Below, one piece after another: positions 1 through 3,000 of a DNA stretch of 64,000 nucleotides. The stretch lies in the NCBI RefSeq assembly GCF_056712565.1, contig NZ_CM160072.1; one strand, written 5' to 3'. Positions within the stretch are counted from its first letter, which is position 1; the number at the start of each line of letters is the position of its first letter. A program made the position numbers.

Positions 1-3000
1 CGACCGGGGCTATCCACTTCGGCACCAAGAAGGAGATGCTGGAGCTGGCGGAACAGCGCGTAGCGAAACTGAAAGCGCGTGGTTACGAACATGCTGGCGT
101 CTACAACCCGGAAGGGGTCGGTGGTACGCACGTTATGTACGTGCTGCATCATGCCGATCAGCCGGAGCTGTATCATGGTCTGCCGAAAGATCCGAAGATC
201 GATACCTCGGTAAGCCTGTGGAAAGGCGCGTTGAAACCGCTGGCAGCGGCTGGCTTTATTGCCACTTTTGCCGGGTTGATTTTCCACTACATCGGTATTG
301 GCCCGAATAAGGAAGTGGACGATGACGAGGAGGGAAATCATGAGTAAGTCGAAAATGATTGTGCGCACCAAATTTATTGATCGCGCCTGTCACTGGACCG
401 TGGTGATTTGCTTCTTCCTGGTGGCGCTGTCCGGGATTTCGTTCTTCTTCCCGACGCTGCAATGGCTGACGCAAACCTTCGGTACGCCGCAGATGGGACG
501 CATTTTGCACCCGTTCTTCGGCATTGCGATTTTCGTCGCGCTGATGTTTATGTTTGTGCGTTTTGTGCATCACAACATCCCGGATAAGAAAGATATTCCG
601 TGGCTGTTGAACATTGTCGAAGTATTAAAAGGCAATGAGCACAAAGTGGCGGATGTCGGTAAGTACAACGCCGGGCAAAAGATGATGTTCTGGTCAATCA
701 TGAGCATGATTTTCGTGCTGCTGGTGACCGGAGTGATTATCTGGCGTCCGTACTTTGCACAGTACTTCCCGATACAGGTTGTCCGTTATAGCCTGCTGAT
801 CCATGCGGCTGCGGGTATCATCCTGATCCACGCCATCCTGATCCATATGTATATGGCATTCTGGGTGAAAGGATCGATTAAAGGGATGATCGAAGGGAAG
901 GTGAGCCGTCGCTGGGCGAAGAAACACCATCCGCGCTGGTATCGAGAAATCGAGAAGGCAGAAGCGAAAAAAGAGAGTGAAGAAGGGTTATAATCTCTTT
1001 TGAGCTTTAAGCTGAAAATGGCGCTGTAAAAGGCGCCATTTTTTTATTGTAGACAACGTGCACTTTGTTCATGCCGGATGCGGCGTGAACGCCTTATCCG
1101 GCCTACAAACCGTTCAAATCCAATAGATTGCAGTGAACGTGTAGACCTGATAAGCGTAGCGCATCGGGCAATGTTGCGTTTGTCATCAGTTTCAAATGGC
1201 GCTTTATAAGGTGCCATTTTTTTATTGCGTAACCAGACGGCGCAGTCGCGACACATCCACCGTTTTTTCCGCCTCTGCCAGACTCCAGGCATTTTGCAGA
1301 TTCAGCCACATTTGCGGCGAACTGCCGATCACCACGGAAAGTTTTATTGCCATTTCTGGCGTCAAAGCTGCTTTTCCGGTCAGCAATCGGCTTGCCGTTG
1401 AGGGCGCAATTTCCATTGCTCTGGCAAACTCGCGCAGGCTGACATTAAGTTCGTCCAGTGATTCCTGAATAATGTCCCCCGGGCGGGGATGATTGGCCAT
1501 TTTCATCAGTGATAGTCCTCGTAATCCAGTATGTATGCATCGCCATTGACGAATTCAAATGTGATTCGCCAGTTGCCCGAGACAGATATCGCCCAAATTC
1601 CATCGCGATCGCCGCTTAACGGATGTAGTCGGTAACCGGGCATATCGATATCAGCAAGACAGCATGCTGCATCAATCACAGCGAGTCGGTGGCGTAATCG
1701 TTTGACTTGCGTCGGTATAACGCCGGAGGTTTTGCCGAGAAGAAACAAGTCACGCAATCCCTTGTGTCTGAAATTCATTATCATCTCTTCATCCTTGTTC
1801 CCTCGAAAGGAACACTATCACTATTGTTCCGTACAGCGCAACAAATTTCGCTACGTTTTCGCGAATTGTGAGGGGAAAGATGGGGGAGGAAAAGAAGAAG
1901 AGTGAAATTGCGGAAAGCGTCTCGCAAAACAGGCTGCGACCCGAACATGGCAGTCGCAGCAAAGACCTCTTAGCGACGGAAATCAATCACCATACGGCCA
2001 CGGATTTTGCCTTCTTCCATCTCGGTAAATATGGTGTTGATGTCCGCTAACGGACGCAGGGCGACTTTCGGCACCACTTTGCCTTCGGCGGCAAACTGGA
2101 AGGCTTCGGTTAGATCCTGACGCGTGCCGACCAGCGAACCGACCACTTCAATACCATCCAGCACCAGCCGTGGGATGTCCAGGCTCATAGACTCCGGCGG
2201 CAGACCGACAGCCACGACACGACCACCTGCACGGACAGCATCCACCGCCGAGTTAAACGCAGCTTTAGCTACCGCTGTCACCACCGCTGCGTGAGCGCCA
2301 CCGGCTTTCTCCTGCACAATTCTGGCGGCGTCTTCGGTGCGTGAGTTAATCGCTAAATCTGCACCCATTTCGGTTGCCAGTTTTAACTGTTCATCATTGA
2401 CATCAATGGCGATCACTTTGGCGTTAAAGACATTCTTCGCGTATTGCAGGGCGAGGTTACCCAGACCGCCAAGACCGTAGATAGCAATCCACTGTCCTGG
2501 ACGAATTTTTGACAGCTTAACGGCTTTGTAGGTAGTGACCCCCGCACAGGTAATGCTGCTGGCCGCCGCCGAGTCCAGACCATCTGGCACTTTTACCGCG
2601 TAATCGGCGACCACGATGCACTCTTCCGCCATCCCGCCATCAACGCTGTATCCGGCATTTTTAACTGAACGGCAGAGCGTTTCGTTACCACTGTTACAGT
2701 ATTCGCAATGACCGCATCCTTCATAGAACCACGCCACGCTGGCACGATCGCCTGGTTTTAATGAAGTAACACCAGGGCCAACTTCTGCCACCACACCAAT
2801 ACCTTCGTGTCCCAGAATCACGCCGGTTTTGTCACCAAAATCGCCATTCTTAACATGAAGATCGGTATGACATACACCACAACACTCCATTTTCAGCAGG
2901 GCTTCGCCATGTTTCAGTGAGCGCAGTGTTTTATCCGTAACGTCAACATGATGATCCTTCGTAACAACTGCAGCCTTCATAGTTCCTCCTTTTCGGATGA

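Follow-up and report, generated by a model that had tools for sequence, protein, structure and literature searches.

The HigB-HigA pair of the Proteus vulgaris plasmid Rts1 is the founding 'host inhibition of growth' toxin-antitoxin system, and structures of its toxin are available for the free protein, the complex with HigA and the ribosome-bound state (PDB 4MCT/4MCX; ribosome complexes 4W4G, 4YPB and 4ZSN). Mutagenesis of Rts1 HigB identified His54, Asp90, Tyr91 and His92 as critical and Arg73 as contributory (PMC5027501), and the Rts1 promoter Phig has been experimentally demonstrated to carry two operators, over its -35 and -10 elements (PMC12266136). Here we describe a related pair, higB-yddM, in a 64,000-nucleotide (nt) stretch of contig NZ_CM160072.1 (NCBI RefSeq assembly GCF_056712565.1), the whole of which is called the window below. 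The locus is very probably a type II toxin-antitoxin operon of the Rts1-type HigBA family, resident in the chromosome and vertically inherited, and would work through the standard circuit of that family. Its two coding sequences are:

1506..1784, minus strand: higB-type toxin coding sequence, 92 amino acids (aa), open reading frame call; PGAP WP_000605675.1, 'type II toxin-antitoxin system RelE/ParE family toxin'
1222..1506, minus strand: higA antitoxin/yddM coding sequence, 94 aa, with an XRE-type helix-turn-helix, open reading frame call; WP_000781370.1, annotated yddM

These are exactly the two reading frames, toxin first with a 1-nt overlap, that the initial annotation had placed between fdnI and adhP, and this location is borne out as well (fdnI ends at 993, adhP occupies 1970-3010). 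The minus-strand sequence at the junction is CAC-TGA-TG, in which the TGA that ends the toxin (1508-1506) and the antitoxin ATG (1506-1504) have base A1506 in common. The co-oriented, overlapping toxin-before-antitoxin arrangement is that of a higBA operon, and this order is kept in all orthologous loci. Positions 1000-2000 of the window are 100% identical to the chromosome of the Escherichia coli type strain ATCC 11775, on which PGAP lists in order fdnI, yddM ('HigA family addiction module antitoxin'), a 'type II toxin-antitoxin system RelE/ParE family toxin' and adhP.

Like Rts1 HigBA, the pair forms a toxin-first operon. The two toxins, both of 92 aa, are 56.5% identical (52/92 residues, full length and ungapped against PDB 4MCT, E 1.2e-31) and have the same His54, Arg73, Asp90, Tyr91 and His92; for HigA the alignment covers residues 7-87 with E 1e-18. 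Operators at both the -35 and the -10 have been demonstrated for Rts1, and the window pair has two candidates in the corresponding places. Unlike the plasmid-borne Rts1 system, the window pair is chromosomal and syntenic with fdnGHI/adhP, its antitoxin has 94 aa versus 104 aa, and Lys57 and Arg69 of Rts1 HigB are Ser in its toxin. The half-sites TGTTCC/GGAACA, 7 nt apart (N7), also differ from Rts1 type, showing no relation to the TGTAATATT-type repeats that precede an Rts1-like copy on a Providencia plasmid. Transfer of an operator sequence from Rts1 was consequently abandoned, the architecture alone being comparable.

The antitoxin protein is 100% identical to PDB 2ICP (titled 'antitoxin HigA') and 2ICT, which represent YddM of E. 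coli CFT073 (PMC3968373), and to the product of K-12 yddM (b1477). ChIP-exo has detected in vivo DNA binding, with a palindromic motif, by YddM of K-12, an Xre family protein (PMC6237786). K-12 differs from the window in that the toxin gene is missing and yddM lies directly behind the promoter with the two candidate operators (O1 and O2) described below. The same locus, judging from gene sizes (279 and 285 nt), gene order and toxin absence from K-12 and HS, was listed as TA20, 'ParE-2/HigA-2', in adherent-invasive E. coli (AIEC) NRG857c, and that study reported that K-12 and HS keep just its antitoxin (PMC7232551). TADB 3.0 lists the pair as TA027334, 'higBA'. GraT-GraA of Pseudomonas putida (PDB 6F8S, 6F8H, 6FIX; GraT E 5.5e-7, GraA E 1.8e-11) and K-12 HigBA (ygjN-ygjM) belong to the same HigB and HigA families and are also toxin first, but both are much more distant in sequence. 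K-12 ygjNM was not among the PDB matches of the window toxin at E≤1 and would thus belong to another HigB subfamily, encoded elsewhere in the genome.

As a toxin-antitoxin pair the locus therefore brings nothing new: both genes are annotated automatically by PGAP, the pair is listed in TADB and in the AIEC study, and the antitoxin structure is solved. The identification is correct but already known, and the operator model and the toxin-loss series presented below are useful details, not discoveries.

Toxin and antitoxin families

Family searches with both proteins agreed with the RelE/HigB-type toxin and XRE helix-turn-helix HigA antitoxin that had been proposed. The toxin matches Pfam PF05015 HigB-like_toxin at 63 bits (cut-off 27, E 3.8e-17), its residues 4-92 covering profile positions 2-91 of 91. 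With 56.5% identity and E 1e-31 to several solved HigB chains, Rts1 HigB structures among them, it would be expected to adopt the microbial-RNase (RelE-like) fold. The five catalytic residues stand at the Rts1 HigB positions in the ungapped 92/92 alignment and are also kept in the intact orthologs (17 of 18 read directly, the read-out of the other, L015, being offset by one codon). The antitoxin matches the NCBIfam equivalog TIGR02607 antidote_HigA at 93.7 bits (cut-off 47.7, E 4.5e-27), and its helix-turn-helix PF01381 HTH_3 at 39.1 bits (cut-off 23).

According to the label 'ParE-2' given to the AIEC NRG857c locus, the toxin would be a ParE-type gyrase poison and not an mRNA interferase. The CDD label 'ParE_toxin superfamily' in the same survey (PMC7232551) and the generic PGAP name 'RelE/ParE family toxin' agree with such a reading, which we nevertheless consider highly improbable. 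At E≤0.01 HigB-like_toxin is the sole Pfam match, with no ParE family; a HigB whose ribosome-bound structure is solved is 56.5% identical over the full length; and the catalytic His/Asp/Tyr/His set is kept. The ParE label was dropped on these grounds and, unlike in the AIEC survey, the toxin is assigned to HigB. In NCBIfam its sole match is RelE_StbE, below threshold (17.4 bits versus a cut-off of 27.9).

In an ortholog scan limited to one genome per species, toxin identity to the window was 99% in Escherichia albertii, 82-90% in many Citrobacter species and 62-64% in Buttiauxella and Cedecea. The pair adjoins fdnI in Escherichia and in Citrobacter, which argues for its vertical inheritance. 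Both genes are under purifying selection, the ratio of nonsynonymous to synonymous substitution rates (dN/dS) between Escherichia and Citrobacter being 0.03-0.12 for each, which speaks for functional products of all intact copies. In Buttiauxella and Cedecea (four loci, L021-L024) the antitoxin is better conserved than the toxin, at 74-81% versus 62-64%. Distant homologs from metagenome-assembled genomes display the usual reverse, with about 50% for the toxin and about 33% for the antitoxin.

A plasmid origin was considered and rejected. The lone 100% 'plasmid' match, NZ_CP141085.1 (385 kb), carries fdnGHI-adhP-maeA-osmC and is thus chromosomal DNA; true plasmid HigB homologs are all less than 60% identical to the window toxin, and those of interest for cross-protection by YddM have 40-57% identity. 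This replicon of E. coli KE48 has osmC-bdm-sra-maeA-adhP-higB-yddM-fdnIHG in chromosomal order and probably became a 'plasmid' through mis-assignment or mis-assembly of a piece of the chromosome.

Candidate operators and promoter

The region upstream of the toxin gene contains the following candidate regulatory elements:

1796..1814, unstranded: candidate operator O2, promoter-proximal, perfect inverted repeat TGTTCC-N7-GGAACA, over the -10 end and the transcription start, which is predicted near 1805 of the minus strand
1825..1843, unstranded: candidate operator O1, distal, imperfect inverted repeat TGTTCC-N7-GCAACA (coding strand TGTTGC-N7-GGAACA), overlapping the -35
1812..1820, minus strand: predicted extended -10, TGaTAGTGT, deduced from the conserved TGnTAnnGT columns and overlapping the left O2 half-site
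1836..1841, minus strand: predicted -35, TTGCGC, deduced likewise, 18 nt upstream of the -10 hexamer and inside the left O1 half-site

Three of the half-sites had been seen in the initial annotation, as a nested palindromic operator TGTTCC-N8-GGAACA-N10-TGTTCC starting at 1795. The motif is present, but it starts at 1796 and its first spacer is N7: TGTTCC occupies 1796-1801 and is followed after 7 nt by GGAACA (1809-1814) and after 10 nt by TGTTCC (1825-1830). A fourth, imperfect half-site, GCAACA at 1838-1843, had escaped notice and pairs with the third. The palindromes are consequently not nested; they form two tandem 19-bp inverted repeats, with a 20-nt unit TTGTTCC-N7-GGAACA recurring 29 bp apart. 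With at most one mismatch, TGTTCC-N7-GGAACA occurs twice in the 64-kb window, both times here and at most 60 bp upstream of the toxin ATG, against 0.15 occurrences expected; two sites were reached in 3 of 100 shuffles.

Comparison of 17 orthologous promoters from Escherichia, Citrobacter, Buttiauxella and Cedecea, with toxin identity down to 62%, yielded the coding-strand pattern TGTTGC-N7-GGAACA-N10-TGTTCC-N7-GGAACA, located just ahead of the ribosome-binding site. Expressed as mean top-base frequency, conservation is 0.98-1.00 in the O1 half-sites and 0.62 in the O1 spacer, 0.97 in the O2 half-sites and 0.75 in the O2 spacer, and only 0.51 in the 20-nt upstream flank. This alignment was anchored on the half-sites, and the real finding at sequence level is that every lineage fits the O1-O2 pattern while the surroundings drift. 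The gap between the operators is N10 with the sole exception of C. amalonaticus (9 nt), and the invariant columns within it are TGnTAnnGT, the last bases of which are the start of O2 (window 1820-1812). TTGCG, within the left O1 half-site, is invariant in 17/17 promoters; a -35 in this place would explain why this half-site is always TGTTGC and not TGTTCC. A strong phylogenetic footprint, over about 19 lineages, supports the autoregulatory operator suggested upstream of the toxin; YddM may repress its own predicted promoter at O1 and O2.

The palindromes could in principle be an RNA hairpin (an attenuator, a terminator or a structure of the 5' untranslated region) or a chance repeat, and not protein operators. 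The RNA could fold into a 6-bp stem with a 7-nt loop, and a consensus promoter was not found by scanning. Yet the half-sites are invariant, with no co-variation, while the loops vary freely, and all lineages share an imperfect O1 with the same G/C asymmetry, a feature that would make a stem less stable but suits the TTG of a -35. Moreover, the predicted start site falls inside O2, so that O1 and half of O2 would be untranscribed; the adhP terminator is a distinct element at 1933-1960; and the chance expectation given above is low. We dropped the RNA-structure interpretation, an Rfam scan of 900-2100 having returned only sub-threshold matches related to repetitive extragenic palindromes (REP), outside the operon, and hold both it and coincidence to be extremely unlikely. 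Read as protein operators, the O1 and O2 palindromes over the -35 and -10 offer, for the K-12 'y-gene' transcription factor YddM, a model that is precise, comparative and testable.

For toxicity, neutralisation through complex formation, DNA binding, promoter elements and trigger, we infer the standard HigBA circuit. A single bicistronic higB-higA (yddM) mRNA would be transcribed from a weak sigma-70 promoter that has an extended -10, and on this mRNA the one-base TGATG overlap may couple translation of the two genes. By homology, HigB would be an endoribonuclease that depends on the ribosome, entering its A site to cut mRNA via His54, Arg73, Asp90, Tyr91 and His92. The Rts1 structure suggests, by analogy, that a YddM dimer would sequester HigB as a HigB2-HigA2 complex; via its two helix-turn-helix motifs the dimer would also bind the two 19-bp palindromes, covering the -35 at O1 and both the -10 and the start site at O2, and turn the operon off. 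A drop in YddM, presumably through proteolysis or arrested synthesis, would then free HigB and derepress the promoter. K-12 laboratory hosts carry an identical YddM, and HigB toxicity tests in them would therefore be masked unless yddM is deleted.

Loss of the toxin and persistence of yddM

Toxin DNA is present, as a single copy, in 1330 of 5426 complete E. coli genomes. In at least 545 of these 1330, a one-base deletion (C1687, toxin codon ~33) shifts the frame and cuts the protein after about 33 residues; its carriers include O25b:H4-ST131, and PGAP flags the gene as 'frameshifted'. A 17-nt internal deletion (toxin nt 73-89) is found in about 40 of the 1330. The exact intact sequence around the frameshift site occurs in 492 genomes, and the only changes in other intact alleles are C41S, V27I or I46L; the window copy is intact. 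The toxin gene is lacking in 4096 of the 5426 genomes, K-12 included, yet these carry yddM. Toxin-less strains that were sampled encode the identical antitoxin WP_000781370.1, one variant excepted (WP_001302113.1, strain 141). Between the window and K-12, yddM displays 9 synonymous and 0 nonsynonymous differences, and dS between toxin-bearing and K-12-type alleles is 0.14.

In the K-12 allele, O1, the -10 and O2 are retained ahead of yddM. A gap-tolerant realignment indicates that its short yddM leader resembles the final ~25 nt of higB, which carry the yddM ribosome-binding site, and a stretch akin to the GAGGA Shine-Dalgarno sequence of yddM is still present. On a first alignment this allele had looked like a simple deletion between two ATGAA start motifs; a putative retention of ~25 nt of higB, as in the realignment, fits better. 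When 2186-2330 of our K-12 DH1 locus (L002) is set against window 1507-1969, the promoter region is far more diverged than the flanking genes, operator half-sites excepted. A rare third allele (2 of 5426 genomes) was seen in E. coli O157:H7 TR01 (L041, 1498-1642). It combines ~50 nt of the toxin 3' end, a K-12-type O1 and window-type distal sequence, lacks O2 and the -10, and has a spacer of 145 nt, the same as K-12; its make-up suggests a mosaic or a deletion of separate origin.

The toxin gene has suffered at least three independent lesions in E. coli, and three Citrobacter loci represent independent toxin decay outside Escherichia. In one of them (L036) just the first 27 toxin codons are left, adjoining an intact antitoxin; in another (L026) only toxin residues 28-92 align (77%), the N-terminal part being disrupted; the third (L025) retains a toxin fragment (residues 30-92) and no detectable antitoxin. 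Such a strain-to-strain pattern is typical of chromosomal toxin-antitoxin erosion. With the toxin intact, frameshifted, partly or wholly deleted and the antitoxin invariant, it provides a natural series for asking why orphan antitoxins persist.

Several points weigh against the operation of the full HigBA circuit at this locus. With the toxin absent from about 75% of complete E. coli genomes, and frameshifted or internally deleted in many of the others, its function is dispensable and often selected against. Our literature search found no experiment on this toxin, and a 2024 review states that these pairs 'remain to be characterized'. Deletion of higBA in CFT073 gave no phenotype in mouse urinary tract infection (PMC3464220); that this is the same locus is our inference from the locus listing of AIEC NRG857c (PMC7232551). 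In addition, the unrelated operator sequence of the Rts1-like copy means that DNA specificity is not transferable by homology. Finally, the consensus scan of 950-2100 found no sigma-70 site, and the -35/-10 assignment therefore derives only from the conserved TGnTAnnGT and TTGCG columns.

These data could also describe a decaying addiction module in which it is YddM that is selected, as a domesticated autoregulated repressor or as an 'anti-addiction' immunity against HigB-bearing elements, the intact toxin being a passenger of little role. The 4096 genomes with yddM, commonly identical, and no toxin point in this direction, as do the strictly synonymous differences from K-12 yddM, the repeated lesions in E. 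coli and Citrobacter, the operators and promoter still preceding yddM in K-12 and the better conservation of the antitoxin in Buttiauxella and Cedecea. However, the purifying selection on intact toxins and the retention of all their catalytic residues argue for a functional, not a drifting, protein. Furthermore, chromosomal mis-assignments aside, plasmid HigB homologs are less than 60% identical, which makes cross-neutralisation by YddM doubtful. We consider this interpretation possible though rather unlikely; it complements that of a HigBA operon and does not exclude it.

Tentatively, the maintenance of YddM under strict purifying selection behind an intact two-operator promoter, after repeated toxin loss, may reflect a domesticated host function. 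The losses concerned are deletion of the entire gene, seen in about 75% of E. coli, the frameshift of the group containing ST131, the 17-nt deletion and the decay in Citrobacter. This would suggest that YddM controls a small regulon or confers immunity against HigB toxins from plasmids or phages. If this were true, the window, with its intact pair, would show the ancestral state within a natural 'toxin-loss series' suited to the study of antitoxin domestication.

Flanking elements and translation signals

Further features of the locus are:

1970-3010, minus strand: adhP coding sequence, upstream neighbour of higB
1933..1960, minus strand: adhP terminator hairpin, the upstream boundary, reading GCTGCGAC-N12-GTCGCAGC then CTGTTTTG on this strand
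1792..1795, minus strand: Shine-Dalgarno sequence AGGA for higB, 7 nt ahead of its ATG (1784), as read from the sequence; AGGA is mostly kept in orthologs
1516..1520, minus strand: Shine-Dalgarno sequence GAGGA for higA/yddM, read in the same way, within the final higB codons and 9 nt ahead of the ATG (1506)

The adhP terminator hairpin lies directly 3' of the adhP stop (1970) and is kept in all alleles. Between it and the hig promoter, at ~1882-1932, is a purine-rich stretch of ~50 nt (GGGGAGGAAAAGAAGAAGAGTGAAATTGCGG...), which is present in toxin-carrying alleles and missing from the K-12-type allele; its GCGCTTTCC block is kept into Citrobacter. On the other side of the operon, the fdnI terminator hairpin (AAATGGCGC...GCGCCATTTTTTTATTG) is present twice, at 1016-1049 and 1194-1227 (34 nt, 91% identity). 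The two copies flank an insert (1050-1190) resembling REP or bacterial interspersed mosaic elements (BIME), where the Rfam matches naRNA4/ES036 are sub-threshold. Some genomes align to the query only from position 195 on, consistent with the lack of this REP/BIME-like insert and with one hairpin copy fewer.

Ahead of the toxin, a mini-ORF of 3 codons, ATG-AAG-AGA-TGA (1780-1791, minus strand), begins 7 nt before the ATG of the toxin, which its stop overlaps. Although probably incidental, it could have an effect on how the toxin is translated. The ATG matching its start is in frame with the toxin in several Citrobacter loci.

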